Shown here: one piece after another, positions 1-12,656 of the stretch
How positions within the stretch are numbered: position 1 is the stretch's first letter
Layout: each line of letters begins with the position of its first letter
The notes under the pieces: model-generated
Seen by the model: only the letters and a program-made list of their open reading frames with translations
Database searches by the model: none
Told to the model about the DNA's origin: nothing
NCBI GenBank assembly: GCA_963768295.1
Contig: CAVYHN010000016.1
Span: 15,803 to 79,802 of the forward strand
From: an uncultured Gammaproteobacteria bacterium
GTDB taxonomy: Bacteria; Pseudomonadota; Gammaproteobacteria; GCA-001735895
Direction: 5' to 3'
Length of the DNA: 64,000 nucleotides
Position numbers and translations under genes: made by a program

Positions 1-2
1 CG

Positions 3-158
3 GTAATACTACCGTTCGCGCTGGGATTGCTCTGGATCGTATCGCCGGCGCTGGTTTTCATCATCGGCGCGCTGTTCGCATTTGCCTCGCTGATGCTGTC
101 GCAAATGGTGCCGGGTGCGCCGGAACGGGGTATGGAAACGGTTTTCTCGCACGGCTGA
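3..158 (+). CDS. 3' end of a membrane-protein CDS (partial, runs off the window start)
   Basis: Open frame from position 3 to the TGA at 156-158. Hand translation gives a hydrophobic tail, VILPFALGLLWIVSPALVFIIGALFAFASLMLSQMVPGAPERGMETVFSHG*. No family recognised. Confidence 0.3.
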   Translation, partial: VILPFALGLLWIVSPALVFIIGALFAFASLMLSQMVPGAPERGMETVFSHG

Positions 159-303
159 GAGACGGGCGTTCCCCAGGTCTACCGGCAATCGGATTGAATT
201 CCTGTTAACGGTCTGAACCAGCCTGGCTTATCATCTGGCGCAGTCTGCGCTCAGGGTAAAATGATCCAGCGCGATGGCGTGCAACAGAAAAGGGAGAAAC
301 AAT

Positions 304-1095
304 ATGTCGACCAAACGACTGCAAGACCGGGTGTGCATCGTGACCGGCGCCGCTTCGGGAATCGGCCGGGCCATCGCCATCCTGTTTGCCGCTGAAGGCG
401 CGCAGGTCGTCATCCTCGATCCCCGGGAGGAACCGATCGAGGGTGGTGAATCGACGCTGGAATGCATCCAGCGGGCGGGTGAGAGGGCGAAAGCATACCC
501 GGTCGACGTATCGGACTGGGAGCAGTTAGATCGTGCGGTTACTGAAGTCATCGACGCCTTTGGCGCCTTGCACGTTATGGTCAACAACGCCGCGATTTAC
601 ACCGGCACAAACTTGCTGGAAACCACGCAACAGGACTGGGACCGGGTCATGGCCGTCAATCTGCGTGGTGTTTTCAACGGCTGCAAGCGCGCAGTGCAGC
701 AAATGCTGACGCAGGAGCCGGTGGGCGAAGCGCGCGGCCGTATCGTCAATATTTCCTCCCAGCACGGCATGATTGCCTGCCCGGGTGATATCGCCTACGG
801 GGTCAGCAAGGCCGGCTCGGTCTATATCACGCGTCAGATTGCGGCGGATTATGCGGCGCAGGGAATCATCTGCAACGCCGTAGCGCCCGGCAAGATCCTG
901 ACCGGCCGCACAGATGCGATCGACGAAGCTTCGATGCACTATGCGCGCTCGCGTACCCCGATGGCGGGGGCGCCGCTGGCTCGACTGGGCAAGCCCACGG
1001 ACGTCGCCAGCGCGGCCCTGTTTCTGGCCAGCGATGAATGCACCTATGTCAACGGCGCCAACCTGATGGTCGACGGCGGCTGGAGCGCGGCCTGA
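304..1095 (+). CDS. short-chain dehydrogenase/reductase (SDR) family oxidoreductase
   Basis: N-terminal Rossmann motif TGAASGIGRAIA, NNAAI and YxxxK (YGVSKAG) catalytic motifs, ~263 aa. RBS AAAGGGAGA before the ATG at 304. The listed ORF starts 30 nt upstream, but the MSTKRL start fits SDR N-termini. Confidence 0.85.
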   Translation: MSTKRLQDRVCIVTGAASGIGRAIAILFAAEGAQVVILDPREEPIEGGESTLECIQRAGERAKAYPVDVSDWEQLDRAVTEVIDAFGALHVMVNNAAIYTGTNLLETTQQDWDRVMAVNLRGVFNGCKRAVQQMLTQEPVGEARGRIVNISSQHGMIACPGDIAYGVSKAGSVYITRQIAADYAAQGIICNAVAPGKILTGRTDAIDEASMHYARSRTPMAGAPLARLGKPTDVASAALFLASDECTYVNGANLMVDGGWSAA

Positions 1096-1188
1096 AGCGA
1101 GGAAAAAGTTACGCGCCGGTTCGTGCGGGGCGCGAAATGATTGCCCGGATCTAAGGCTGCAAGGCCTTCCGAAACCGCTGCCGGGGGT

Positions 1189-3444
1189 TCATTTTTGAGA
1201 CATGTTGATGACCCAGGGTGCCTCAGGTAACGAATCTGCCCGCAGCCGCTGCTGGCATTGGGTTGCGTAGAAGCGCGCAGGACCGTCGTGCGGAAAAGTC
1301 TTCAGTATCGATTTGAATACCTTCGACGCCGCTTTCCAGTTGGCGGCCAGGAACAATTCGATTCCGCTTGCGAAGCGCTCGCATAATTCGGTTTGTTGCC
1401 CGGTCGCCTCGCTCGTCAGGCTGAGTATCTCGAAGATCGGCAGCGCCTCGGTTTTTCCGACAAAAACAAATTGCCCGATCGGGCGCAGCAGCAACCCGTC
1501 GATGCCCTCGATGGTCGATGCGGTGGCGAGAACCTGCGAGCCCACGTGCTTGTTCAGGCCCTCGATACGTGACGCCGTGTTGGCACAATCACCGACGATG
1601 CTGTAGACGAAATGACCGCCTCCCCCGGAATGCCCGACGTAAACCTCGCCGGTCTCGAGGCCGATACGCAGTGAGGTCTCGAAAGCATCGTGCCTGGCCT
1701 TGAAGTCTTCGATCGCATCTGCGGCCTGCAGCGAGGCGAGGATGGGTTTGCGGCGTATCTCGGGATCCGATTCATCGCCGGTCCAGGCGCACATGATGGC
1801 ATCGGCACGAAACTCGGTCACGGTCACGTCATGATCACTCAAAGGCCTGGCCAGGGTATCGAAATAATCGTTTAAAAATTCGGCCAGCTCTCCCGGCCGC
1901 ATGTGTTCGGCGATGGTGGAGAAACCTTGCATATCGGTCGCGAGGCAGGTGCTGAAGGTGACCTGGTCGATATTTTCCGGTTTCAATTCGTTGCTGGTCA
2001 GGGCCCTGGATACCTCGGCCGGAACGTACAGACTGATCGCCTCGCTGATGTGCTTGACCTTGTGACGTTGCTGCAGGTACTGGGCTAACAGGCCGACAAT
2101 CAACGCCAGCGGAAACTGCAGCAGTATTGGCGTGGCCAGGGGCAGCCATAGCTGGTTACCGTCGAACTGGACTTGCGCATGATAGGCGTAAACTGCAGCC
2201 ACAACGATGGACGCGGGTACGCCCAGGCTGGCCGGAGTGAAGTAGATCACCATGGTGATCAACAGGCCGAAGCAAAACAGGATTGCGAGCGTCATGATTG
2301 CGTCCGGACTTTGTAGCGATTCGTCGTGTAGCAGGTTGCCGAACGCGGTCGCTGCTATTTCGACGCCGCTCAAATCGATACTGTTTTCATCGGTGAACAC
2401 CGTATAAAAGCGATCCGGTTGTCCCGGGTCGTACAGATCCGAGAAGCCGACGAAGACAACCTGGTTGGTCAAATCCAGCTGATCGGCGCTGATGTTCTGA
2501 TCAGGCCCCCTGATGATGGCATGGTAGGGCACGGTTCTTATGGTCCCCGGCGGTCCGTAAAAGTTGAGGTAGCGCTCGTTGCTGCCGGTATACATGGCCA
2601 CCAGTGCGTGCAGCAGGCGCCTGGTTTCCGCGGACTCGGCGGTAACCCAGGGTTGTGCAAGTTCCGCGCTAAGATTGTCGACGAGGGTTGGCCGGTCGCT
2701 GATGACACCGCGAATTCCGGTCATCAATCCGGCCAGGTCAGCGGCGGTAGATATCTGCGCAGCCGATTCGGGCAACTCGATATGTGTTGCCAGACCGCTA
2801 CTGTCGAGTAGGCGTCTAAACGGGGCATAGGCTTTCAGCGCGTGCAGCTGGAAGCCGACCGCGGGCATTGTCGGCACTTCGCGCGCGCTGCTTTTGAATA
2901 CCCAGAATTCATGCACCGCGGCCTCGAGCTTGGGCAACGGAAATGGTCCCAGGCCCCTGGCCGCCTCGGCCAGTGGGGCTACCGGGGAAAGCAGTTCCTC
3001 GACCCAGACGCTGCCGCGGATTTTACCCGAGCTGTCTTCGATTGGTTGTCGTTTGCCGGTCAGGTGCTGAAACAGGACCACGCGCTCGGAGCGTCTGACC
3101 GATTCGGCAAATAATTGCTCGTCCATGACGGATCTCGGCTTGTGAAAATCGATATCGAATACAATTGTCGAGGCACCCCTTTCAACCAGGCCATCGACCA
3201 GCTTGCCGTGGATGGAGCGTGGCCATTCGCGTGGCAAATCCGAAATATCCAGGCGCCCGCCGGTCAAGCCATCGATAGCGATGACGGTAACCCCGGCCGG
3301 GGCCTCGATCGCGCCGCGGATATGGAACAGCCAGTCCAGTCCGATACTGCGTTCGAACAGGGTGCCGTAGGACGACAGGCCGAGCAGGCTGCCGGCAAAT
3401 CCTATCGCCCAGCCCAGCAGCAGGCCTTTAAAAAGGCGCCGCAT
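1189..3444 (-). CDS. CHASE2 sensor domain-containing adenylate/guanylate cyclase
   Basis: 751 aa. The N-terminal ~400 aa have a CHASE2-like periplasmic sensor architecture flanked by TM segments (LLLGWAIGFAGSLL; ILFCFGLLITMVIYF...). The C-terminus carries a class III nucleotidyl cyclase domain (FSTCLATDMQGFSTIAEH...VGDCANTASRIEGL). Confidence 0.8.
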   Translation of the reverse strand: MRRLFKGLLLGWAIGFAGSLLGLSSYGTLFERSIGLDWLFHIRGAIEAPAGVTVIAIDGLTGGRLDISDLPREWPRSIHGKLVDGLVERGASTIVFDIDFHKPRSVMDEQLFAESVRRSERVVLFQHLTGKRQPIEDSSGKIRGSVWVEELLSPVAPLAEAARGLGPFPLPKLEAAVHEFWVFKSSAREVPTMPAVGFQLHALKAYAPFRRLLDSSGLATHIELPESAAQISTAADLAGLMTGIRGVISDRPTLVDNLSAELAQPWVTAESAETRRLLHALVAMYTGSNERYLNFYGPPGTIRTVPYHAIIRGPDQNISADQLDLTNQVVFVGFSDLYDPGQPDRFYTVFTDENSIDLSGVEIAATAFGNLLHDESLQSPDAIMTLAILFCFGLLITMVIYFTPASLGVPASIVVAAVYAYHAQVQFDGNQLWLPLATPILLQFPLALIVGLLAQYLQQRHKVKHISEAISLYVPAEVSRALTSNELKPENIDQVTFSTCLATDMQGFSTIAEHMRPGELAEFLNDYFDTLARPLSDHDVTVTEFRADAIMCAWTGDESDPEIRRKPILASLQAADAIEDFKARHDAFETSLRIGLETGEVYVGHSGGGGHFVYSIVGDCANTASRIEGLNKHVGSQVLATASTIEGIDGLLLRPIGQFVFVGKTEALPIFEILSLTSEATGQQTELCERFASGIELFLAANWKAASKVFKSILKTFPHDGPARFYATQCQQRLRADSLPEAPWVINMSQK

Positions 3445-3590
3445 AAGCCCTAGGGGTTATAAGGTTTACTGTCTTTCTTATTTTCACGGCAATCGAATCT
3501 ACCCTATCTGCGGGTTTAAATCAGCTTCGATCAGGAATTTGTTTATTTGACCCATTCTGGGGCTGGCATGCTTTATTTCGGGGACTTTGG

Positions 3591-6500
3591 GTGCGGCAAC
3601 TTGAGCCAGGTTGTTTTTGCCAGGTGATGAGTATAGGATTGGGTGTCAAAATAATGACAAATCCAGATCATAGCAACAATAACAATGGATCGGTCGCAAA
3701 AAAGAAAATTGAGGGTGGGGTCATGAGCGTTAAACAGGTACCCAGCGATTCTGGGGATGTGCCATCGGTTTCATGCTGGCCTGAATCAAGGCTGTTTTTC
3801 GTGGTGCTATTCCTGTTTTTTGCATTAACTTTGAGCGGCAAGGCCCGGGCCGAATGCACCGAGGCCGTCGGCCAGTTCGTCGATATTCATGGCGAGGTCG
3901 AAACCCAGGCCGAGGACGGTGGTGACTGGGCTAGCGCCACCATAAAGACCGCGCTGTGCGAAGGCAGTTCGATCAGGGTCGGCGAACAGAGCCGCGCCGC
4001 CATCGCGCTGATCAACGACGCCGTGCTGCGGATCGACGAGAATACCACGATGCGCCTGGTGGATATAGTCGAGGGAGAGGCAGAAGAAGAGCGTTCCCTG
4101 CTCGATATCATCAAGGGCGCGATCCATTCGTTCAGCCGCAAGCCCAGAAAGTTATCGATCAATTCCCCTTATCTGAATGGCTCCATCGAGGGAACCGAGT
4201 TTGTCTTCCGCGTTACCGATGAGCAGTCGGAAATAACCGTATTCGAAGGCACGGTCGTGGCCGCCAACGATCAGGGCAGCGTCGCGGTTTCCGGCGGCGA
4301 AGCAGTCAGCGCCGGCCAGGGGCAGGCACCGCAAGCGCGCACCGTGGTGCGACCGCGCGATGCCGCGCATTGGTCGTTGTACTACCCACCCGTTTTCGCA
4401 ACCGGCGGCGACCAGGCCGCGGATGTTTCAACCGAACTGCGACAGGCGGCGGATGACCTCGCGGCTGGCCGGGTCGACCAGGCACTTCCGAAACTCGACC
4501 AGGCCATTGCTGCAGGCACGAATGCCGGGCTTGCCTATGCATTGCGTGCGGTGATCAACGTGGTACAGAATCAACTCGATGCGGCGCTTGCCGATGCCAG
4601 GCAGGCGGTGGCGTCGAGTCCCGACAGTGCCGCCGCCCTTGTTGCCCTGTCGTACGCGCTACAGGCCGGCTTCCAGATTAACGAGGCCCGCGACACGCTG
4701 CTGCAGGCCGTGGCGAAGCAACCCGAAGATGCGCTTGCGTGGGCGCGACTGGCGGAATTGCAGCTCATGCTCGGGGACAAACAGCAGGCGTCTGAAGCCG
4801 CGCAACGGGCAGTCACGCTGGCGCCGGACCTCGGCAGAACGCAAATTACGCTCGGTTTTACGGCGTTGGCCGAGTTCCGTGCGGAGGATGCGCGAGCTGC
4901 ATTCGAAAAAGCGATCGTGCTCGATTCGGCCGATCCCTTGCCGCATCTCGGCCTCGGTCTCGCCAAAATCAGTGCCGGCGAACTCGAGCAGGGGCGCGCG
5001 GATATCGAGGTCGCGGTCGGACTCGGATCCAACGATGCCCTGTTGCGCGCCTACCTCGGCAAGGCCTACTTCGAAGAAAAACGTGCGCCGCTGGATAGCC
5101 GGCAGTTCGATATCGCGAAACAGCTGGATCCCAATGATCCGACCGCCTGGTTGTATAGCGCTATCGCCAAGCAGACACAAAACCGCCCGGTCGAGGCCGC
5201 ACAAGACCTGGAGCAATCGATCGCGCTGAATGATAACCGTGCGACCTACCGGGGCCGCTTACTGCTTGACAAGGACCGGGCCGCACGGGGATCTTCGCTG
5301 GCACGTGTCTTTAAGGATCTGGGCTTTAATCAAACAGGTATAGCTGAATCGACCAAGTCGCTCGGCGCGGATCCCGCCAATGCTTCGGCACATCGCTTCC
5401 TGTCCGACTCCTATCGTGAAACTTCACACCGTACCGAAATTTCACGAGTCAGCGAATTGCTACAGGCCCAGATGCTGCAGGATCTGAATATCAATCCCGT
5501 TCAACCCAGTATTAGCGCTACAAACTTGAATATCGTGACGGCCGGGGGGCCTTCTGCGGCGGGGTTCAATGAATTTACCCCGTTGTTCGAGCAAAATCGG
5601 ACTCAGCTTAACGCCAGCCTAATGGCTGGAAATAACGAGACGAGAGGCGGAGAGGCGGTTATATCGACGGTGTATGATCGCTTTTCAATCAGTGGCGGCG
5701 CTTTCGACTTCGAAACTGACGGTTTCCGACCCAACAACGATACCTCTCACCAAATATCGGGGCTCTTTGCTCAATGGGCCGTATCACCGACGGTAAATCT
5801 CCAGGCTGAAGTCGGCCGGCGAGAGACCGAGTATGGCGATATCGCCATGCACTTTGATCCGGATGATTTCGATTCGACCTCCAGACGCACTCTGGATGTC
5901 GACACTGAGCGGGTAGGGATGCGTATCGCACCGAATAATAATTCCACAATATTACTGTCAGCCATCCGCGCAGATCGCGATGGCTTTGCCCACCAGGAGG
6001 AAGAGCTGGAGCTGTTTCCCGGATTCAGTCTTGATATCGTTTTTGACGGGTTGCTGGATGAGGAAGTTACCCAATACGACGTGGCGTATATCTACCATCA
6101 GTCAGGTTTCAATTTCACGACGGGCGTCGCCTATACCGAGAGTGATCGTCTTGATACATTTACCTTTTCTGATGTGCCAGTCGCGTTTTTTGATGATCTG
6201 GAAACTGAACAGATTGATCTTGTAGACGCGCGCGTTTACGTCTACGGCAACATCACATTATTACCGGGCGTAGTTGGTACGGTTGGTCTCAGCTACCAGG
6301 ACTACGATCAGGATCAGGTGTATAACTATACAGACCAGACAGGTTTTCTTCCGCCGTCTTCTGCTGAATCTGACCTGGACTTTGACGAGGTTAACCCTAA
6401 GCTCGGGATTCGCGCTGAAGTCATGGATAACCTGGAGCTGCGGGCGTCTTATTTCGAGGTCGTCAAGCCGGCCTTGTCGAGTAACCGCACGCTGGAGCCG

Positions 6501-7139
6501 ACCCAGGTGGCCGGCTTCAACCAGTTCTTTGATGACCCCAACGGGACCAAGTCGAAGCGCTACGGCCTGGGTCTGGACGGGAAAGCGTCCTCGACCTTCA
6601 GCTACGGCGTGGAGCTCACCCGTCGGGAGATCGAAGGACTGGTCAGCCCGCTCGGCGCCGAACCGTTTTTCGAGGACAGGGATGAGTGGCTGCACCGCGC
6701 CTACGCCTACTGGACCCCCGTCGACAGACTGGCCGTGGATTTCAGCCTGGAATATGACCGTTCCGAAAACCAGGACGATTCGGCGGTTTCAGGCGTAAGG
6801 CCGACCCAGGTCGATACCCACAGTTTTCCTGTTTCGATACGGTATTTTCATCCTGGAGGTACTTTCGTGGGAGTCAGGACCACCTATGTCGACCAGAAGG
6901 TTGAGGCGGAAAGCGATTATCAATACCAGACAGGCAGCAGTAATTTCACGCTTGTCGACCTGGTGGTTGGATACCGCTTACCGAAGCGAAAAGGCATCAT
7001 GAGTCTCAGTTTCCAGAATGTGTTCGACGAGGAATTCGATTATCTCGACGACAGTTACCGGTCTTTTCAGGACGAGCCGAGCGCCGGGCCGTATATTCCA
7101 GATAGCAGCGTTATGGGACGACTGACGTTAAGTTTTTAA
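3591..7139 (+). CDS. giant outer-membrane protein: signal peptide + FecR domain + TPR repeats + C-terminal β-barrel
   Basis: 1182-aa ORF. Signal peptide FFVVLFLFFALTLSGKARA. A FecR-like domain (IRVGEQSRAAIALINDAVLRIDENTTMRLVD...TEFVFRVTDEQSEITVFEGTVVAANDQGSVAVSGGEAV) is followed by many TPR-like Ala/Leu-rich repeats (aa ~300-560). The C-terminal ~600 aa are rich in alternating hydrophobic/aromatic β-strands and end in ...GRLTLSF (terminal Phe, OMP signature). True start is uncertain: ATGs at 3591, 3627, 3654 and 3723 are all possible. Confidence 0.7.
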   Translation: MRQLEPGCFCQVMSIGLGVKIMTNPDHSNNNNGSVAKKKIEGGVMSVKQVPSDSGDVPSVSCWPESRLFFVVLFLFFALTLSGKARAECTEAVGQFVDIHGEVETQAEDGGDWASATIKTALCEGSSIRVGEQSRAAIALINDAVLRIDENTTMRLVDIVEGEAEEERSLLDIIKGAIHSFSRKPRKLSINSPYLNGSIEGTEFVFRVTDEQSEITVFEGTVVAANDQGSVAVSGGEAVSAGQGQAPQARTVVRPRDAAHWSLYYPPVFATGGDQAADVSTELRQAADDLAAGRVDQALPKLDQAIAAGTNAGLAYALRAVINVVQNQLDAALADARQAVASSPDSAAALVALSYALQAGFQINEARDTLLQAVAKQPEDALAWARLAELQLMLGDKQQASEAAQRAVTLAPDLGRTQITLGFTALAEFRAEDARAAFEKAIVLDSADPLPHLGLGLAKISAGELEQGRADIEVAVGLGSNDALLRAYLGKAYFEEKRAPLDSRQFDIAKQLDPNDPTAWLYSAIAKQTQNRPVEAAQDLEQSIALNDNRATYRGRLLLDKDRAARGSSLARVFKDLGFNQTGIAESTKSLGADPANASAHRFLSDSYRETSHRTEISRVSELLQAQMLQDLNINPVQPSISATNLNIVTAGGPSAAGFNEFTPLFEQNRTQLNASLMAGNNETRGGEAVISTVYDRFSISGGAFDFETDGFRPNNDTSHQISGLFAQWAVSPTVNLQAEVGRRETEYGDIAMHFDPDDFDSTSRRTLDVDTERVGMRIAPNNNSTILLSAIRADRDGFAHQEEELELFPGFSLDIVFDGLLDEEVTQYDVAYIYHQSGFNFTTGVAYTESDRLDTFTFSDVPVAFFDDLETEQIDLVDARVYVYGNITLLPGVVGTVGLSYQDYDQDQVYNYTDQTGFLPPSSAESDLDFDEVNPKLGIRAEVMDNLELRASYFEVVKPALSSNRTLEPTQVAGFNQFFDDPNGTKSKRYGLGLDGKASSTFSYGVELTRREIEGLVSPLGAEPFFEDRDEWLHRAYAYWTPVDRLAVDFSLEYDRSENQDDSAVSGVRPTQVDTHSFPVSIRYFHPGGTFVGVRTTYVDQKVEAESDYQYQTGSSNFTLVDLVVGYRLPKRKGIMSLSFQNVFDEEFDYLDDSYRSFQDEPSAGPYIPDSSVMGRLTLSF

Positions 7140-7216
7140 AATTAAGGCAATGCATAAATAACCAAAACGGACATTTCAATACCAAATTTATTTGAACCGA
7201 AGAGGGGTACCTATAC

Positions 7217-8227
7217 ATGAACAGAGTAATAAAATATTGCGGGCTGATTGGCTTTGCTGCGATTTTCGGATTGTCGAACGTTGCATTTGCAGCGTGTACC
7301 TTCGACCCTGATGTTACCAGCCCTTTTTCAGTCCCGGACGGGGTATCTGATCTCAGCGGGCAGGGTAATTTTACCTGTGCCGACTTTATCGGTTCCGGCG
7401 GAGTAGCCATGACCGAGGTGACTGGCGTCGTTTTTGAGCGAGACGGCGACTGGATATTGCCCGAATCCGCGCGGATTACAGAGAACGGTTTTGTGACTAA
7501 TACCCCGGATCAGATCGTGCTGTTTCCACAGGGTAACGGTTCCCGCTGTAATTTCTCATACCTCAGGAACAATGCGGTACAAGGGACGGGTCTGGGTATC
7601 GGGGGCAATGTCGACAGAAATGACTCGGTTGCCTGTACCGATGGAATTGTTAATTCCGAAGAGGCCCCTCCTCTTCCCGAACCCGATCTTGTAACCACAA
7701 CAGATGCGTGCACGGTCACACTGGATGCATTCTTGCCTAGTGGTGGGACGGTTGATGAAGGTGACTTCACTTACTTCACTGGTTCGAACCTGGACGGAAC
7801 CATACAGGCTATCTGTAGTGCCGATGGTACTCCTCAGAATGAATGCGTGCGGGGATGCCCCAAGTTCAGAAATATCGAAGCATTGCAGGATGCGGGTTAC
7901 TGCCATGCTAATGCCGATGGCTCGATTCCACTGGAGGATACGAATATACCTTCTGCTTTCGATGAATATACCGATGACAAGCGTTGTACGCCCTGTCTGA
8001 CGGCAGCCCAGGCCGAATCAGATCCGGAACTCTCGGGCTTCGATACCGGTGGGCTGAAGCTTTGCTGGGAGTACACGAATAGTGTGGGTAATTTCACTTA
8101 CAGGTCCCACAAGCCGGTACGGTCGCAAACCACCGAGACCGATCTATTTAATGAATGTTACCAAACCACAACCACGGTCAACTTTTTCGGCAGGGAGATT
8201 ACCAAGACAATCACCACCTGCGACTAG
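7217..8227 (+). CDS. secreted cysteine-rich protein of unknown function (possible lipoprotein)
   Basis: Signal peptide MNRVIKYCGLIGFAAIFGLSNVAFAAC, cleaved by SPase I at AFA/A or lipidated at the Cys. About 16 Cys over 336 aa, Thr/Asp/Gly-rich, no recognisable catalytic motif. It lies 77 nt downstream of the giant FecR-TPR-barrel gene and is followed by a strong terminator. Confidence 0.6.
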   Translation: MNRVIKYCGLIGFAAIFGLSNVAFAACTFDPDVTSPFSVPDGVSDLSGQGNFTCADFIGSGGVAMTEVTGVVFERDGDWILPESARITENGFVTNTPDQIVLFPQGNGSRCNFSYLRNNAVQGTGLGIGGNVDRNDSVACTDGIVNSEEAPPLPEPDLVTTTDACTVTLDAFLPSGGTVDEGDFTYFTGSNLDGTIQAICSADGTPQNECVRGCPKFRNIEALQDAGYCHANADGSIPLEDTNIPSAFDEYTDDKRCTPCLTAAQAESDPELSGFDTGGLKLCWEYTNSVGNFTYRSHKPVRSQTTETDLFNECYQTTTTVNFFGREITKTITTCD

Positions 8228-8312
8228 AAGTGTGGTTTTAAAGTACAATATTGCAGGTTGTATAAATGGAATCGAAACCGGAATCGAAGACACCTGATCG
8301 ACTCTAGCTACA

Positions 8313-8338
8313 GGGCCCCGCGAGGGGCCCTTTTTATT
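8313..8338 (+). terminator. rho-independent terminator
   Basis: GGGCCCCGCGAGGGGCCC perfect hairpin followed by TTTTTATTT. Confidence 0.7.
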
Positions 8339-8509
8339 TACTAGTCCCGATATAATTGGATTCGTATTCCCATGAGTGGGCCAAAAGGTATAAAGGGTCG
8401 GTGAAAAATGCGATTTATTTAGATTTGTCGCTGGGCGCTTTTTTTATTTTTCGGATGCGAATGTAAAGGAAGTTTGGCGCTTCCCCTCTTTATATTGTTG
8501 TCGATATTG

Positions 8510-9379
8510 CTAGGGCGAAACGACGCAACGATTGCTGAGGATGCCGAGACCCTCGATTTCGACCGCAACCTCGTCGCCCGCCTGCAACCAGATCGGTGGA
8601 TCGCGAAACGCGCCGACGCCATGCGGGGTGCCAGTGGCGATGATGTCCCCGGGCAGCAGGGTGAAAGCCGCACTGAGGTACTCGATCAGGTAGGGGATGT
8701 CGTAAATCATTTCGCGGGTGTTCGAGTCCTGCATGACCTGGTCGTTAAGCCAGCATTTGATCGACAGCCGGTGCGGGTCCGGGATTTCATCGCGTGTCAC
8801 GAGGTAGGGGCCGAGCGGGCAAAAAGTATCCAGGCATTTGCCGCGCAGCCACTGGTCGCCGGGCTTGAACTGCAGGTCGCGCGCGCTGACGTCGTTGCAA
8901 TTCATGTATCCGGCGACATAGTCATAGGCGACCTCGGCATCGACGTTGCGCGCGGTCTTGCCGATAACCACGGCGAGCTCGGCCTCGTAGTCGACCTGGT
9001 CGGTGAGGTCGGTGGACCAGCGGATGTCTTCACCGCTGCCAATCACGGCCGACGGATACTTGCAAAACATCGTCGCCAGTTCGGGCACGCCGATATCGGC
9101 CTCGCGAATGTGGTCCATGTAGTTCAGGCCGATGGCGACGATCTTGCTGGGATTGGGCACCGGCGATAGCAGCCTGGCGGAATCGAGCGGCAGTTCGCCA
9201 GCGGCATTCTCCAGTGCTGCACGCGCGGTTTGCATCGCCGCCCCACCGAGCTGCAGAAAACGCAGCATATCGTCCGGCAGCGTGCCGCCGCTGGCCTCGC
9301 TCAAATTGATGATCTGATCGTCCCTGACCGCGCCGAGATGAACCCGGTTATCGGATACCTGATAGCTGACCAGTTTCAT
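8510..9379 (-). CDS. fumarylacetoacetate hydrolase (FAH) family protein (2-keto-4-pentenoate hydratase / HpcE-like)
   Basis: 289 aa. FAH-family signature regions: IVAIGLNYMDHIRE, DYEAELAVVIGK, CLDTFCPLGPYLVT. Confidence 0.8.
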   Translation of the reverse strand: MKLVSYQVSDNRVHLGAVRDDQIINLSEASGGTLPDDMLRFLQLGGAAMQTARAALENAAGELPLDSARLLSPVPNPSKIVAIGLNYMDHIREADIGVPELATMFCKYPSAVIGSGEDIRWSTDLTDQVDYEAELAVVIGKTARNVDAEVAYDYVAGYMNCNDVSARDLQFKPGDQWLRGKCLDTFCPLGPYLVTRDEIPDPHRLSIKCWLNDQVMQDSNTREMIYDIPYLIEYLSAAFTLLPGDIIATGTPHGVGAFRDPPIWLQAGDEVAVEIEGLGILSNRCVVSP

Positions 9380-9830
9380 ATCGATTTGCTCCCTGGGTTA
9401 CCGCCCGCATGTGCGCGTAAACGATGCGACCTGCGACAGTTTCGTGAAAAATGCCGCAGGGGTTTATGATTGTCGGCCGCGCCGCTGATAATGAGGGCGT
9501 CTTACGCCGGATAGTGTATTGAAATTCCAGCCTAAATCTATCACTCAATGGTTACGTTAGTTCTTTGCCGACAGCGGGTTGGTCGGTGGCCTGAATGCGT
9601 TACCCGTTACCACGGTAACGGTTCACATCGGCGGTAACGTCGCGCTGCTGGAGCTGGCGGAGAACCGTTTGTATGACGTCAGGCTGGCAATGATGTCGCC
9701 ACCGCGGCCGCAGTCTGCGAGAATTGCCGTGCTTGTGATCGACGATGAAACCTTGGTCAAACTGCATTGTGAGCGCGCCAGCCGCAATAAATTGAACAGC
9801 ACGGTCGTTATTCGCGGAAATGTAGATACT

Positions 9831-12656
9831 TCAACCGGTGTTGCGCAGCCCGGCCGCAATCGCATTGATCGAACTCAGTAACGCCGACTGCCACTGCAGG
9901 CGATCGGCTTCGGGCTGAGTTTCATCGCGATATTTTTTGAGCAGTTCTATCTGTAAATAGGCGAGGGGATCGAGGTAGGGATCGCGCCGCGTCAGCGACA
10001 GCGTCAGTACCGGGTCGTTGGCCAGTAACTCGTCTATCTCGGCTATCTGCAGCACGGTCGCGATACTGCGCTCGTTTTCCCGATGGATCATGCCGTAGAT
10101 CAGGGTCGCCAGTTTCTTATTCTCGCAAAGCTTGCTGTATTCGAGCGCGATGCGCATATCGGATTTGAACAGCGACATTTGCAGGTTGCTGATCATCGCC
10201 GTGAAGAAAGGCCATTGCCGGTTCATTTCGTGCAACTGCCTGAGGCGATCGTCATCTGCCGCTATCCAGTTTTCGATGGCGGCGCCGACGCCATACCAGG
10301 CCGGCATCGTGGTGCGTGAAATGCTCCAGCCGAACACCCAGGGGATCGCGCGCACCGATGATTTGGACAGGTCGCCCTTGCGTCGATGCGACGGACGTGA
10401 ACCGATGTTCATCAAGCCGATTTCGCTGACCGGGGTGGTTTCATAGAAGTACTCGAAGAATCCCGCAGTGTCGTCGGTGAGCCGTCGATAGCTTTGTTCG
10501 GACAGCAGCGACAGTGCCTGCATCGCGGCATGATATTGTTCGTAGTTCGCCTCATCCTGGCGCTGCGACAGCATGCTCGCCTTCATCAGGCCGGTGATAC
10601 CCATCGCCAGTTCATAGTTGGCGGTTTCGGCATTGCCGTATTTGTGCGACAGGACTTCACCCTGTTCGGTAAATTTGATTTGCCCAAGCACGGTATGCGG
10701 CGGCTGCGACATGATCGCATCGTGCGTAGGACCGCCACCGCGGGTAATGGTGCCGCCGCGTCCGTGAAAAATTCGGCATTGCATGGCGTGCCGCGCGGTA
10801 ATCTCAACCACTTTCTGCTGTGCCTGGTAAAGCCCCCAGGCGGCCGACATGATGCCGCCGTCCTTGCAGGAATCGGAGTAACCGAGCATGACTTCCTGAC
10901 GGCCGCCGGTTTGACCCAGCAGCTCACGGTAAACCTCGTTTTGCAGCAGTGCGTCGAGCACAACGTCGATATGCGCGAGATCGTCGATGGTTTCGAACAG
11001 GGGCGAGATTTCAAGGCTGCAAAAGTAAGCCTCCCCCTGGCGGCCTGCGAGCCCCGCGAGAAAGGCCAGGTACATGACTTCCATGATATGGCTGGCGCTA
11101 TGCGTCATCGATATCACGTAACTGCCGATACAGCGCCGGCCGATTTTCTGGCGCATGTCGTAAATCATGTCCAGCACGGCAAGCGTTTGCCGGTTTTCGT
11201 CCGCCAGCAGGGCACGGTCGAACTCGGGTTTTATGTCGTCCCGGATCTGTGCTGCCAGCAGTTTCACGCGCTCAGTTTCAGCGAGCGTCCGGTAGTCGAG
11301 GCCAGCCGATAACTGCAGGATTTCGCTGACGGCGTCGGTATGCCGGGCGGACTCCTGGCGCACATCCAGGCTGACCAGGTGAAAGCCGAAGGTTTCGGCG
11401 ATACGTATCGCATCTTTCAGATCGCCGTTGGCAGCGGCGTACTCTCCGTGGCTCATCAGGGAGTCCCGAATCGAGTAAAGGTCGTCGAGAAAGTCCTGCA
11501 GGCTGGCATAACCCTGCTCGGCATCCGGCGTTTCCCGGTCGCGCATCTGGTTACGTACGATCGCCAGGTTCTTCTTCAGCCGGTGATGCATGTGATAAAG
11601 CTTGCGCCGGTACACCTCCTCCTCGAACTGGTCGCGGCGTTGATCGAAGGACCCAAAGCCCATGGCTTCATCCCGTTGCAGCCGCTGCAGGAATTCCTCA
11701 CTCGGGCTGAACCAGCGGGTCGACATGGTCAAAACCTGGGTCAGCCGATAAATCTGACGCACGTGTTCGCCGAGAATTTCTTCGGCCTGCATCAGCAGGG
11801 CCATACGCGTGGTGTCCGGGGTGACGAATGGATTGCCATCGCGGTCACCACCAATCCAGGAGCCGAACTCGATGAAACTGGGGACGTTTACCACCGGATT
11901 GCCGAACTCGTCCTCGCCATATATCCGCGTGATCGCCCGCTCGAGATGTCGATAGTCGATCTTGACCGCTTCAAACAGGCTCAGCTGAAAATAGTGCAGG
12001 CCCATCTTGATTTCGTCGGCCACGCTGGGTTTGCTGCCACGAACTTCGTTGGTTAACCACAGGGTTTCGATCTGCAGTTGCAGCGCGTCGACCAGGTCGT
12101 CACGTTCGAACTGACTCAGGCGTGGGTCGGTCAAGTGGTCGATAATTTTGAAAACCTCACGCTGGTGATGCATCACGGTGCGCCGCCGCGATTCGGTCGG
12201 ATGCGCGGTAAACACCGGTTTGTACAACAGGTCGTCGAACAGGGTCTGAAGCTCGTCTCTACTCACACCCTGATCCTTGAACTCCTCGATAGTGTGGTTG
12301 AACGAACCGACCCAGGCGGCATGCCCCTGTTGCCGTACCGAAACCCGGCGCAGGCGATGCAGAAAATCCTCCTCGGCGATGTTGACCAGGTTGAAATAGA
12401 TCGCAAAGGCGCGGATAACCTGGTTGATTGCCGGCGCACTGAGGCCCGCGATCAACTTCATCAATTCCTTGCGTTTGGGCTCGCTATCGCGCTTGCGCAG
12501 CTGTATGAAACCGGTGCGCAGCGCTTCGACCGCATGAAAGACTTCGGGGCTTTCGTTTTTGAGCAGCACGTTACCGATCAATTTGCCCAGCAGTTTGACG
12601 CGCGAGCGCAGCTGCTTGTCCGATTTCGCATGAAAGCTGATGGCAGGGATGGTCAT
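9831..12656 (-). CDS. ppc: phosphoenolpyruvate carboxylase
   Basis: PEPC hallmarks VRAIPWVFGWSISR, FHGRGGTITRGGGP and the C-terminal ...LRNTG. The listed ORF starts at 12752, but the MTIPAIS start at 12656 fits PEPC N-termini; the upstream extension is non-homologous. Confidence 0.95.
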   Translation of the reverse strand: MTIPAISFHAKSDKQLRSRVKLLGKLIGNVLLKNESPEVFHAVEALRTGFIQLRKRDSEPKRKELMKLIAGLSAPAINQVIRAFAIYFNLVNIAEEDFLHRLRRVSVRQQGHAAWVGSFNHTIEEFKDQGVSRDELQTLFDDLLYKPVFTAHPTESRRRTVMHHQREVFKIIDHLTDPRLSQFERDDLVDALQLQIETLWLTNEVRGSKPSVADEIKMGLHYFQLSLFEAVKIDYRHLERAITRIYGEDEFGNPVVNVPSFIEFGSWIGGDRDGNPFVTPDTTRMALLMQAEEILGEHVRQIYRLTQVLTMSTRWFSPSEEFLQRLQRDEAMGFGSFDQRRDQFEEEVYRRKLYHMHHRLKKNLAIVRNQMRDRETPDAEQGYASLQDFLDDLYSIRDSLMSHGEYAAANGDLKDAIRIAETFGFHLVSLDVRQESARHTDAVSEILQLSAGLDYRTLAETERVKLLAAQIRDDIKPEFDRALLADENRQTLAVLDMIYDMRQKIGRRCIGSYVISMTHSASHIMEVMYLAFLAGLAGRQGEAYFCSLEISPLFETIDDLAHIDVVLDALLQNEVYRELLGQTGGRQEVMLGYSDSCKDGGIMSAAWGLYQAQQKVVEITARHAMQCRIFHGRGGTITRGGGPTHDAIMSQPPHTVLGQIKFTEQGEVLSHKYGNAETANYELAMGITGLMKASMLSQRQDEANYEQYHAAMQALSLLSEQSYRRLTDDTAGFFEYFYETTPVSEIGLMNIGSRPSHRRKGDLSKSSVRAIPWVFGWSISRTTMPAWYGVGAAIENWIAADDDRLRQLHEMNRQWPFFTAMISNLQMSLFKSDMRIALEYSKLCENKKLATLIYGMIHRENERSIATVLQIAEIDELLANDPVLTLSLTRRDPYLDPLAYLQIELLKKYRDETQPEADRLQWQSALLSSINAIAAGLRNTG

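Follow-up and report, generated by a model that had tools for sequence, protein, structure and literature searches.

CHASE2 is a common bacterial sensor domain with a poorly understood input. The NsrA-CyaK system of Sinorhizobium meliloti, reportedly described together with CyaD1/D2 and Clr by Garnerone et al. in the Journal of Bacteriology in 2018, is, to our knowledge, the one studied case of an outer-membrane protein that feeds this domain. A three-gene locus in a 64-kb stretch of DNA from an uncultured gammaproteobacterium (hereafter, the window) raises the question of whether a unit of this type also operates outside that legume symbiont. The locus consists of a minus-strand gene for an inner-membrane CHASE2-sensor class III nucleotidyl cyclase (ORF1, 1189..3444, 751 aa), a divergent plus-strand gene for an NsrA-like outer-membrane receptor (ORF2, 3723..7139, 1138 aa), with a signal peptide, a FecR domain, a TPR region, a conserved linker and a 22-strand barrel, and a plus-strand gene for a secreted disulfide-rich protein (ORF3, 7217..8227, 336 aa).

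Here we present evidence that the trio is probably an envelope-spanning signalling unit related to NsrA-CyaK, with two features beyond that system, namely, a guanylate cyclase signature and a cysteine-rich protein in the downstream slot. An earlier note on this DNA had proposed a self-contained envelope signalling or export unit with a cyclic-nucleotide readout, and the present analysis supports the signalling reading. For an NsrA-CyaK-type module that signals across the envelope, we put the probability at roughly 0.65.

Gene boundaries and transcription signals

The three ORFs and the domains previously assigned to them were borne out by the ORF listing and Pfam searches. The start of ORF2 had to be corrected: GTG 3591, which gave a protein of 1182 aa and a divergent gap of 146 nt, is only the mechanical start of the ORF (3591-7139). 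ATG 3723 is preceded by the Shine-Dalgarno sequence GAGGGTGG, the deposited protein for ORF2 has 1138 aa (100% coverage), the counterpart in the syntenic locus L085 is also called at 1138 aa, and upstream of 3723, conservation takes the form of non-coding blocks and is not in frame. Together, these observations make ATG 3723 the most likely start, with a predicted product of 1138 aa and a divergent gap of 278 nt (3445-3722).

Alignment of this intergenic region (3445..3722) with those of L085 and L005 revealed two blocks conserved in close relatives. The palindrome GTCAAAATAATGAC (3645..3658), which lies some 65 nt ahead of the ORF2 start codon, is unchanged across the window, L085 and L005 in diverging flanking sequence, and is a candidate operator; GTCA-N6-TGAC occurs at a single site in the 64-kb window, with 0.68 expected by chance. 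No sigma-70 consensus promoter was found in positions 900-8700, including the intergenic region, and no Rfam family matched in positions 1-10000. ORF3 begins 77 nt downstream of ORF2, as originally reported, and is probably co-transcribed with it. The terminator proposed to follow ORF3 is present as an intrinsic-terminator-like hairpin and T-run (8312..8341, plus strand) that closes the ORF2-ORF3 unit; the hairpin (8312-8331) has an 8-bp stem with seven G-C pairs and a 4-nt loop, and is followed by the T-run, TTTTTATTT.

Periplasmic regions of ORF2 and homology to NsrA

The predicted signal peptide of ORF2 (3723..3851, plus strand, residues 1-43) includes a hydrophobic stretch at residues 19-43 and a modelled helix at residues 21-36. 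Under the AxA rule, cleavage would occur after A41-R42-A43, with the mature protein starting at E44-C45; C45 is invariant among 30 homologues. No transmembrane helix was detected in ORF2 beyond the leader. The FecR-type beta-sandwich domain (3870..4343, plus strand, residues 50-207), already recognised in the first reading of the sequence, matches Pfam FecR (PF04773, E 1.6e-10) and is modelled as beta-strands. The TPR or helical-repeat region (4368..5477, plus strand, residues 216-585) matches TPR_1, TPR_2, TPR_16, TPR_19 and other families, is modelled as continuous helical hairpins and has a mean column conservation of 0.76; NCBIfam TPR-protein models match ORF2 in this part only, far below their cut-offs. 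The linker (5478..5597, plus strand, residues 586-625) harbours the pattern EFTPLF[EQ][RQ]N that was used in the genome scan. With a conservation of 0.85, it is one of the two best-conserved stretches of ORF2, the other being barrel loop 915-942, yet it is modelled at low confidence (pLDDT <50 for residues 595-622; mean pLDDT 75 and pTM 0.61 for the complete AlphaFold model).

By profile comparison, ORF2 is a distant, full-length homologue of S. meliloti NsrA: hhalign of the two families covered the whole length (probability 99.94%, E 1.3e-36, 996 aligned columns). The pairwise identity is about 22-27%, with E 1.5e-12 for the FecR region (26% identity), E 1.5e-8 for the TPR region, and a weak match for the barrel alone (22% identity, E 0.044). 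ORF2 combines the features of an NsrA-like receptor, that is, a signal peptide, FecR, TPR and C-terminal barrel regions, an aromatic end, homology to NsrA and an adjacent CHASE2 cyclase. In S. meliloti, CyaK and CyaD1/D2 need NsrA for signal perception (PMC7529298, PMC13001267), and NsrA responds to a protein ligand, the ribosomal protein uL2 (PMC7529298).

In both systems, the gene beside that of a CHASE2 class III cyclase encodes an outer-membrane protein of some 1200 aa, in which a signal peptide, FecR and TPR precede a barrel of some 600 aa whose last residue is Phe. On S. meliloti pSymB, the CHASE2 cyclase gene directly follows a 1224-aa ORF that contains FecR and TPR and has ...VKVRF at its C-terminal end. 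The nsrA ORF has its full 1224 aa in strain AK21; in strain B399, it is truncated at 761 aa and lacks the barrel. An NsrA-like protein paired with a CHASE2 cyclase is also annotated in Rhizobium sp. BG4 and Methylocystis. The gene order differs: the window genes are divergent, but nsrA and cyaK share a strand and overlap.

The FecR-TPR-barrel fusion had been considered unusual; instead, it is the architecture of the characterised NsrA. A scan of species-representative genomes yielded at least 588 confirmed ORF2 relatives, and thus this locus and its full-length relatives place the NsrA-type design in at least 588 species-level genomes, including those of purple sulfur bacteria, ammonia oxidisers (Nitrosomonas), methylotrophs and sulfate reducers. 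A word-indexed search with ORF2 produced 2501 matches; most of the best 120 listed span the full length, at about 1100 aa, with identities of 51% or more. Some database records label ORF2 homologues 'TonB-dependent receptor'.

Linkage of the receptor and cyclase genes

A CHASE2 cyclase is encoded in the flanks of 57 of the 78 loci with ORF2 relatives and adjoins the barrel gene in 31 of the 36 loci flanked on each side by 5 kb or more, across several proteobacterial classes. Its orientation varies: it may precede the barrel gene on the same strand, diverge from it or follow it. The complete trio recurs, with rearranged gene order, in L005, L006-L008, L012, L035, L048, L085 and L086. The earlier note had let its reading stand or fall on a predicted barrel, the FecR domain and the co-occurrence of the trio in other genomes, and all three were found.

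The statement that CHASE2 sensors and FecR proteins are known genomic neighbours agrees with the published linkage of CHASE2 cyclases to FecR outer-membrane proteins (PMC7529298, PMC9239204). In two other known cases, the genes for a CHASE2 sensor and a secreted protein with a FecR domain are likewise paired. The Burkholderia 'BiofilmReg' operon encodes a LysM-FecR protein and a CHASE2 histidine kinase (PMC5192318), and differs in its kinase output and in its peptidoglycan-binding FecR partner. In the CHASE2 cyclase clusters of Campylobacterota, the TPR protein and the outer-membrane protein with FecR each have a gene of their own (PMC9239204), unlike in ORF2, where these parts are fused.

Barrel type of ORF2

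The C-terminal half of ORF2, previously proposed to be a beta-barrel, is modelled as such by AlphaFold, and the sequence ends in ...GRLTLSF. This TonB-dependent-transporter-like barrel (5598..7136, plus strand, residues 626-1138, terminal Phe) comprises 22 modelled strands, with most blocks at pLDDT 80-95. The 50 listed Foldseek matches in the PDB are all TonB-dependent transporters, including Fiu, PiuA, FptA and FecA (E values between 1e-15 and 1e-12, with some 535-620 aligned columns), and TonB_dep_Rec_b-barrel (PF00593) matches the C-terminus of ORF2 with E 9.4e-13. The Plug domain (PF07715) gave no match in ORF2 at E up to 0.1, and the 40-residue linker is all that precedes barrel strand 1. 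ORF2 thus has the 22-strand PF00593 barrel of TonB-dependent transporters, with no N-terminal plug detected. The barrel hairpin tips at residues 761-780 and 861-880 are hypervariable (conservation 0.27 and 0.17), and the loop at residues 915-942 is conserved (0.85).

The PF00593 match and the transporter fold, along with the names of some homologue records, could indicate that ORF2 is merely a channel for diffusion, or else an uptake protein of TonB-dependent transporter ancestry, with the cyclase and ORF3 as unrelated neighbours. We consider this very improbable. Because no plug domain was detected, TonB-dependent gating is unlikely, and ORF2 was rejected as a working TonB transporter; furthermore, the conservation of its FecR and TPR regions exceeds that of the barrel, the great majority of the fully flanked loci have a linked cyclase, and the homologue NsrA has a demonstrated signalling role.

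The fold also bears on two known systems. As in FecA-FecR-FecI, a 22-strand barrel of the TonB-transporter type and a FecR-type periplasmic domain would signal inward from the outer membrane, but here, the barrel and FecR belong to one polypeptide, which lacks the plug, the N-terminal signalling domain and the anti-sigma transmembrane segment; an ECF sigma factor is missing, and a CHASE2 cyclase would act as the receiver in the inner membrane. Neither an ECF sigma factor nor a plug-bearing TonB receptor was found among the genes examined around the locus. A classical FecIRA system, which would combine an ECF sigma factor and a membrane-spanning FecR anti-sigma factor with a TonB transporter bearing a signalling domain, had already been discounted in the earlier note and is rejected here for want of the sigma factor among these genes and of a plug in ORF2.

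PgaA, BcsC and Slam, to which ORF2 had been likened, also have a TPR region in the periplasm and, C-terminal to it, a barrel in the outer membrane. PgaA and BcsC, however, have 16 strands and Slam has 14; none of them is known to carry a FecR domain, and they sit among genes for polysaccharides or surface lipoproteins, not beside a cyclase gene. The 22 modelled strands and the uniform transporter matches among the 50 listed led us to reject an exporter of the PgaA/BcsC/Slam type.

Predicted nucleotide specificity of the linked cyclase

ORF1 contains a CHASE2 domain (2263..3342, minus strand, residues 35-394; PF05226, E 1.7e-23), presumably periplasmic given the usual CHASE2 topology, and a cyclase catalytic domain (1510..1950, minus strand, residues 499-645; Pfam Guanylate_cyc, E 3e-11), with a hydrophobic block at residues 377-458 between them. 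Its identity with S. meliloti CyaK is 26% (E 3e-17). All catalytic residues are preserved, including the metal ligands D504 and D548 and the transition-state residues N622 and R626.

The base-specifying pair, read from a residue table of 57 linked cyclases, is E544/S615. Guanylate cyclases carry Glu-Cys/Ser at these positions, Cya2 carries Glu-Gly, and adenylate cyclases carry Lys-Asp/Thr (review, PMC6005667). In ORF1, E544 takes the place of the Lys that class III adenylate cyclases of the CyaK type combine with Asp or Thr(Ser), and the pair conforms to the Glu plus Cys, Ser or Gly of class III guanylate cyclases. CyaK itself has Lys/Ser and is of the adenylate type, in contrast to the guanylate-type ORF1. 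The best solved match of the catalytic domain is 2W01 (E 5.2e-13), the guanylyl cyclase Cya2 of Synechocystis PCC 6803. Like ORF1, Cya2 combines CHASE2 with a class III cyclase and has Glu, aligned with that of ORF1, at the position of the adenylate cyclase Lys; at the second specificity position, Cya2 has Gly where ORF1 has Ser. Given Glu544 and Ser615 in place of Lys and Asp/Thr, the product of ORF1 is more likely to be cGMP than cAMP; the Glu/Ser pair is a guanylate cyclase signature, as distinct from a measured activity.

The NsrA-linked cyclases of rhizobia and Methylocystis retain Lys, and the linked cyclases of Nitrosomonas have Asp/Arg at the base-specifying positions. The adenylate cyclase Lys is often missing from the cyclases linked to ORF2 relatives; therefore, the true messenger may be cGMP or some other nucleotide. 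The gcyA/gcyB/gcyC-cgrA cGMP system of R. centenum, with its 'non-catalytic cyclase subunits', is a candidate relative (PMC4681086).

The cysteine-rich protein in the downstream slot

ORF3 contains 15 Cys, of which 14 are conserved, and belongs to a small, fast-diverging family. It matches no Pfam or NCBIfam family, and no structural relatives were detected. Searches from ORF3 with hmmsearch and jackhmmer retrieved clusters 5 and 34 only, the next-ranked proteins, which also occupy the downstream slot, being not significant; Pfam searches with six representatives of five downstream-slot clusters gave nothing usable. The identities of ORF1, ORF2 and ORF3 are 82, 89 and 69% in L085, and 49, 57 and 25% in Thiocapsa; judging from these values, ORF3 evolves faster than both other genes. 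At its C-terminus, ORF3 has a three-stranded sheet (8123..8224, plus strand, residues 303-335; strands 303-310, 314-323 and 326-335). The invariant C314 and C335 mark the start and end of the last two strands and would form a disulfide.

The slot directly downstream of the barrel gene is usually occupied by a hypervariable, Cys-rich protein with a signal peptide; these fast-evolving companions are undescribed. A Cys within the last four residues is present in 41 of the 59 downstream-slot ORFs, compared with 56 of 520 other ORFs (Fisher p 2.8e-22), and ORF3 shares a C-terminal Cys-containing motif with otherwise unrelated downstream-slot proteins. This motif could be convergent, or could be a sorting tag instead of a docking element. 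Many of the Nitrosomonas downstream proteins have lipoprotein-like N-termini. The nsrA loci examined lack a Cys-rich third gene, and therefore, the role of ORF3 is not transferable from NsrA. ORF3 is predicted to be secreted and disulfide-bonded, and its most likely role is that of a barrel partner, namely, a plug, cap or co-receptor. In SusC-SusD, TbpA-TbpB and LptD-LptE, a large barrel is encoded beside a secreted or lipoprotein partner that caps it, plugs it or supplies ligand binding. The likeness of ORF2-ORF3 to these pairs, whose partners showed no sequence or fold relationship to ORF3, lies in the gene arrangement, and the complex here is putative.

The same features could suggest an export machine, in which the ORF2 TPR region captures the Cys-rich protein, the wide plug-less barrel brings it to the surface, the C-terminal Cys motif serves as an export tag, and the cyclase only regulates or reports. 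A periplasmic TPR region and a C-terminal barrel next to a putative substrate gene recall Slam, a TPR-plus-barrel protein with a surface-lipoprotein substrate encoded nearby; hypervariable proteins with only a short C-terminal motif in common resemble cargo with a sorting signal, and both the lipoprotein-like N-termini in Nitrosomonas and the lack of a detected plug in a 22-strand barrel fit this scheme. We nevertheless regard export as unlikely: the barrel is of the TonB-dependent transporter type rather than the 14- or 16-strand exporter type, the characterised homologue NsrA is a signal receptor without such a neighbour gene, and the tight linkage to a CHASE2 cyclase would be needless for an exporter. 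Moreover, seven disulfides imply periplasmic folding, and folded ORF3, at roughly 33 kDa, would be a bulky substrate for a barrel.

ORF3 could also be an autocrine or kin signal, namely, a secreted protein ligand sensed from outside by the ORF2 barrel, in a self-recognition or quorum-type circuit with cyclic-nucleotide output. The NsrA ligand is itself a protein, uL2 (PMC7529298), ORF3 and the external hairpin tips of the barrel are both hypervariable, as in a co-evolving ligand-receptor pair, and the two genes are adjacent and probably co-transcribed. Such a circuit appears quite unlikely, however, because the sole route across the outer membrane encoded here is ORF2 itself, and in Nitrosomonas, the counterparts resemble lipoproteins that are anchored, not signals that diffuse.

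A signalling module of the NsrA-CyaK type with ORF3 as a barrel partner can be extended, tentatively, to a widespread three-part receptor. Hypervariable disulfide-rich proteins or lipoproteins with the conserved C-terminal Cys motif might dock into or cap the plug-less barrel and set its recognition, with the FecR end driving a CHASE2 cyclase of non-canonical base specificity (Glu/Ser here, Asp/Arg in Nitrosomonas). If so, CHASE2 domains in general would sense a protein partner rather than a small ligand, and the downstream-slot proteins would define a new family of modular surface co-receptors. Should ORF3 be a plug or co-receptor, the locus would offer a tractable model for protein-contact signalling across the whole Gram-negative envelope; otherwise, it would be another NsrA-type module.

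Proposed signal path and candidate receptors of the messenger

In the proposed mechanism, ORF2 would be exported by the Sec pathway and its 22-strand plug-less barrel inserted in the outer membrane, with the TPR array and N-terminal FecR-type domain extending into the periplasm. ORF1 would be a homodimeric class III cyclase of the inner membrane, and the FecR end of ORF2 probably makes contact with its CHASE2 domain in the periplasm. ORF3 would dock on the barrel through its C-terminal Cys-containing sheet. A surface cue, which for NsrA is a protein, would alter the barrel, and the change might pass through the TPR and FecR regions to CHASE2 and activate the cyclase in the cytoplasm.

The gene for the cNMP-binding protein that reads the messenger would lie elsewhere: tblastn searches, with Crp-like and cNMP-binding neighbours of related loci as queries, found no cNMP receptor in the 64-kb window. 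Such neighbours occur at related loci, including Crp/Fnr-like proteins in 18 loci (assigned by sequence motifs, without a domain scan), a glutaminase-STAS-cNMP_binding protein in nine, and a cNMP_binding protein in L086.

Gene content and organization of the module

All three genes described in the earlier note are present. ORF1 (1189-3444, minus strand, 751 aa) encodes a protein with a CHASE2 domain (residues 35-394, Pfam E = 1.7e-23) and a class III cyclase domain (residues 499-645, Pfam E = 3e-11). The plus-strand ORF2 product matches FecR and a run of TPR families in Pfam, and its C-terminal third, which ends in ...LTLSF, matches the TonB-dependent-receptor barrel (PF00593, E = 9.4e-13). 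ORF3 (7217-8227, plus strand) encodes a 336-aa protein with 15 cysteines that has no match in Pfam or NCBIfam. The 77 nt between ORF2 and ORF3 and the strong terminator behind them, a hairpin followed by a T-run at 8312-8331, are likewise as described.

The size of ORF2, earlier put at 1182 aa with a divergent spacer of 146 nt, has to be revised. GTG at 3591 is merely the first possible start. A ribosome-binding site, GAGGGTGG, lies upstream of ATG 3723; the deposited protein has 1138 aa, as does the product called in L085, a syntenic relative; and the alignment of 3591-3722 with relatives consists of non-coding blocks. We therefore take ORF2 to be 1138 aa long and the spacer 278 nt. The palindrome GTCAAAATAATGAC at 3645-3658 is invariant in the window, L085 and a further related locus, L005, with the flanking intergenic sequence diverging. 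It may be the operator of a dimeric regulator acting on ORF2-ORF3, and is the sole GTCA-N6-TGAC site in the window, with 0.68 expected by chance.

A second intergenic block shared by the same three loci (3480-3525, TCACGGC...GAATCTACC.TAT...AAATCA) lies nearer the ORF1 start. Third-position GC drops along the module: within ORF2 it is 0.70 for the FecR part, 0.67 for the TPR part and 0.61 for the barrel, and for ORF3 it is 0.54, compared to 0.71-0.79 in the flanking genes. Weak codon bias, or the exchange of barrel and partner as one cassette, could account for the low values of region 5478-8227.

ORF2 and ORF1 are related to NsrA and CyaK

The fusion of FecR, TPR and barrel, which the earlier note considered unusual, is common. 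A word-indexed search with ORF2 returned 2501 hits, the best 120 of which have identities of 51% or more and for the most part cover the full length (about 1100 aa), and a genome scan with one genome per species confirmed at least 588 relatives. The carriers listed include Chromatiaceae (Thiocapsa), Methylococcaceae, many Nitrosomonas, Methyloversatilis, Rhodocyclaceae, Rhodospirillales and Desulfobacterales.

NsrA is an outer-membrane receptor of Sinorhizobium meliloti required for signal perception by the CHASE2 adenylate cyclase CyaK; residues 600-1200 of NsrA have been drawn as a beta-barrel (PMC7529298; PMC13001267). On pSymB of strain AK21, a 1224-aa ORF, which contains FecR and TPR and whose C-terminal region ends in ...VKVRF, is directly followed by a gene for a 649-aa CHASE2 cyclase, and the same gene pair is annotated on plasmids of Rhizobium sp. 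BG4 and Methylocystis. Pairwise similarity of ORF2 to NsrA is low but collinear, with 26% identity in FecR (E = 1.5e-12), 24% in TPR (E = 1.5e-8) and 22% in the barrel (E = 0.044). Profile-profile comparison of 30 sequences of the window family with three alphaproteobacterial ones gave a probability of 99.94% (E = 1.3e-36) over 996 columns, nearly the whole length, and ORF1 matches CyaK at E = 3e-17. Judged by sequence, the window pair belongs to the NsrA/CHASE2-cyclase kind, all of whose testable sequence-level defining features it possesses. It differs from NsrA-CyaK in gene order, in the guanylate-cyclase-type residue pair (Glu/Ser) of its cyclase, in having a conserved Cys-rich third gene, and in host organism. 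Interest now centres on this third component and on the non-canonical cyclases, in environmental bacteria of a very wide range. The earlier note's broader point that CHASE2 sensors and FecR-domain proteins are known genomic neighbours agrees with reports from Campylobacterota, where a cyclase is found alongside a FecR outer-membrane protein, a TPR protein and a phosphodiesterase (PMC9239204), and from Burkholderia, where a LysM-FecR protein is paired with a CHASE2 histidine kinase (PMC5192318).

In S. meliloti B399 (L001 6851-9136), nsrA is truncated to a 761-aa ORF without the barrel region, with cyaK only 250 nt downstream, whereas the AK21 ORF (L004 6851-10525) has the full 1224 aa; either nsrA is naturally mutated in B399, or the assembly may be in error. 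The gene divergent from the nsrA-like gene of Rhizobium sp. BG4 (L003 6241-6780, minus strand) is annotated as 'Pycsar system effector family protein', which is unexpected next to a cyclase module.

Barrel type and conservation of ORF2

The AlphaFold model of ORF2 (mean pLDDT 75, pTM 0.61) comprises a beta-sandwich (FecR, residues 50-207), helical repeats (TPR, 216-585), a linker (586-625) with a low-confidence stretch (595-622), and 22 beta-strands (626-1137), most blocks of which have pLDDT of 80-95. Among the 50 PDB matches listed by Foldseek, there are only TonB-dependent transporters (Fiu, PiuA, FptA, FecA, FhuA and similar), with E-values of 1e-15 to 1e-12 over about 535-620 columns. The modelled barrel of ORF2 is of the TonB-transporter type, but no plug domain was detected, the Plug family giving no Pfam match. 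PgaA and BcsC barrels have 16 strands and the Slam barrel has 14; given the 22-strand model, both types were rejected for ORF2, and the strand count and transporter matches do not bear out the earlier likening of the fusion to PgaA/BcsC/Slam exporters.

Across 30 homologues, mean column conservation varies sharply along ORF2: 0.71 in the FecR domain, 0.76 in the TPR region, 0.85 in the linker and 0.57 in the barrel overall, within which the hairpin tips at 761-780 and 861-880 fall to 0.27 and 0.17 and the loop at 915-942 reaches 0.85. This pattern of a predicted conserved periplasmic face and variable external tips fits a surface receptor with inward signalling.

Linkage of the barrel and cyclase genes

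We collected 80 related loci and grouped their ORFs into clusters. Of the 78 loci with an intact barrel ORF, 57 have a CHASE2 cyclase gene in the flank; among the loci with 5 kb or more on either side, 31/36 do. Most commonly (34 loci), the cyclase gene is directly upstream of the barrel gene on the same strand, with a gap below 500 nt. L011, L026, L032 and L038 share the divergent arrangement seen in the window, and in some loci the cyclase gene follows the barrel gene with one gene of about 300 aa between. The linkage thus outlasts rearrangement, which argues for a functional pair.

Searches with Crp-like and cNMP-binding neighbours from the related loci found no cNMP-binding protein in the 64-kb window. 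Crp/Fnr-like proteins, assigned from sequence without a domain scan, are encoded in 18 loci, and L086 encodes a small cNMP_binding protein. A glutaminase-STAS-cNMP_binding protein, encoded in nine loci (cluster 4; e.g. L006 14201-16165), may serve the cyclic nucleotide as a metabolic effector.

In Chromatiaceae, including Thiocapsa (L006 4661-7576, L010, L048; cluster 12), a Trans_reg_C + AAA_16 protein of about 1000 aa, possibly a dedicated regulator, is encoded between the divergent cyclase and barrel genes. Four Nitrosomonas loci (L047, L052, L060, L076) contain two paralogous barrel genes within a few kb, and the gene downstream of these, where visible, encodes a small, Cys-containing protein. 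At 9519-9821 (plus strand), the window holds remnants of a second CHASE2 cyclase. They correspond to residues 1-80 (at 60% identity) and residues 615-661 of a Lys/Thr-type cyclase of 661 aa that is intact in L085 between the FAH-family and PEP carboxylase genes; some 530 internal codons appear to be missing from the window copy.

Nucleotide specificity of the cyclase

Among solved structures, ORF1 is best matched by 2W01, that of Cya2, a guanylyl cyclase from Synechocystis that is likewise linked to CHASE2 (PMC6005667). The base-specifying pair is Lys-Asp/Thr in adenylate cyclases, Glu-Cys/Ser in mammalian guanylate cyclases and Glu-Gly in Cya2 (PMC6005667). In an alignment of 57 linked cyclases with CyaK and Cya2, the catalytic residues of ORF1 are D504, E544, D548, S615, N622 and R626; the metal and transition-state residues are intact, and the adenylate-cyclase Lys is replaced with Glu. 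The Glu/Ser pair is common to 17 aligned cyclases, including that of the window. Lys is retained in five: the three linked to NsrA-type genes (Sinorhizobium, Rhizobium, Methylocystis) and those of L028 and L029. A Nitrosomonas-rich group, encoded upstream of the barrel gene (L040-L084; e.g. L040 5475-7655), has Asp/Arg at these positions (pattern DDDRNR in 19 sequences), a pair with no assigned specificity to our knowledge. Judged by the Glu/Ser sequence signature of ORF1, cGMP is somewhat the likelier product.

The Cys-rich protein and the downstream slot

By sequence comparison, ORF3 is assigned to a small family: an indexed search returned 34 hits, and among 1.84 billion representative clusters 57 were matched by its profile. 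The protein has 14 conserved cysteines and an AxA-type leader, and its model (mean pLDDT 83.8) consists of two beta-rich domains joined by a Pro-rich linker, with a C-terminal three-stranded sheet (residues 303-335), in which the invariant C314 and C335 mark the start and end of the last two strands; no resembling solved structure was found. Family members are encoded immediately 3' of the barrel gene in the window and in L005-L008, L012, L035, L048, L085 and L086, and nearby, not directly downstream, in L016 and L020. ORF3 diverges faster than its neighbours: identity to the window for ORF1, ORF2 and ORF3 is 82%, 89% and 69% in L085 and 49%, 57% and 25% in Thiocapsa (L006, L048).

In 59 cases, the barrel gene is followed within 400 nt by an ORF on the same strand. 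These ORFs form many unrelated sequence clusters, mostly of 110-370 aa, which sequence searches from ORF3 did not join to it, so we describe a shared positional class with a C-terminal motif and do not claim homology. A signal-peptide-like N-terminus is predicted in 48/59, and in some from Nitrosomonas the N-terminal sequence is lipoprotein-like. Cys occurs in the last four residues of 41/59, compared to 56/520 other ORFs (Fisher p = 2.8e-22), a conservative contrast because several of the latter that bear the motif are additional copies close to these loci. The downstream ORFs are also richer in Cys (3.6% against 1.5%), and their typical C-terminus is ...C-x-[YW]...G-[GR]...C-[YWF]. The alphaproteobacterial NsrA loci lack such a Cys-rich third gene.

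By homology to NsrA-CyaK and by its anatomy, ORF2 would be an outer-membrane receptor whose conserved periplasmic arm (TPR and FecR) would touch the CHASE2 domain of ORF1, such that an event at the cell surface would turn on the cyclase, and a receptor whose gene lies elsewhere would read the cyclic nucleotide, probably cGMP. Most simply, ORF3 would be a stoichiometric partner of the barrel, which with 22 strands and no plug would have to be closed in some way; the conserved, poorly modelled linker 586-625, the loop 915-942 and the C-terminal sheet of the partner are candidates for closure. The main rival explanation, that ORF2 exports ORF3 and the C-terminal motif is an export tag, is disfavoured by the TonB-transporter type of the barrel, the NsrA precedent and the linkage to the cyclase. 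Ranking behind export is the possibility that ORF3 is a secreted ligand.

Nine stretches of a 3726-aa metagenomic protein, P0195, match the N-terminal domain of ORF3 (profile positions about 48-132), which suggests that this domain is a reusable surface or adhesin-type module.
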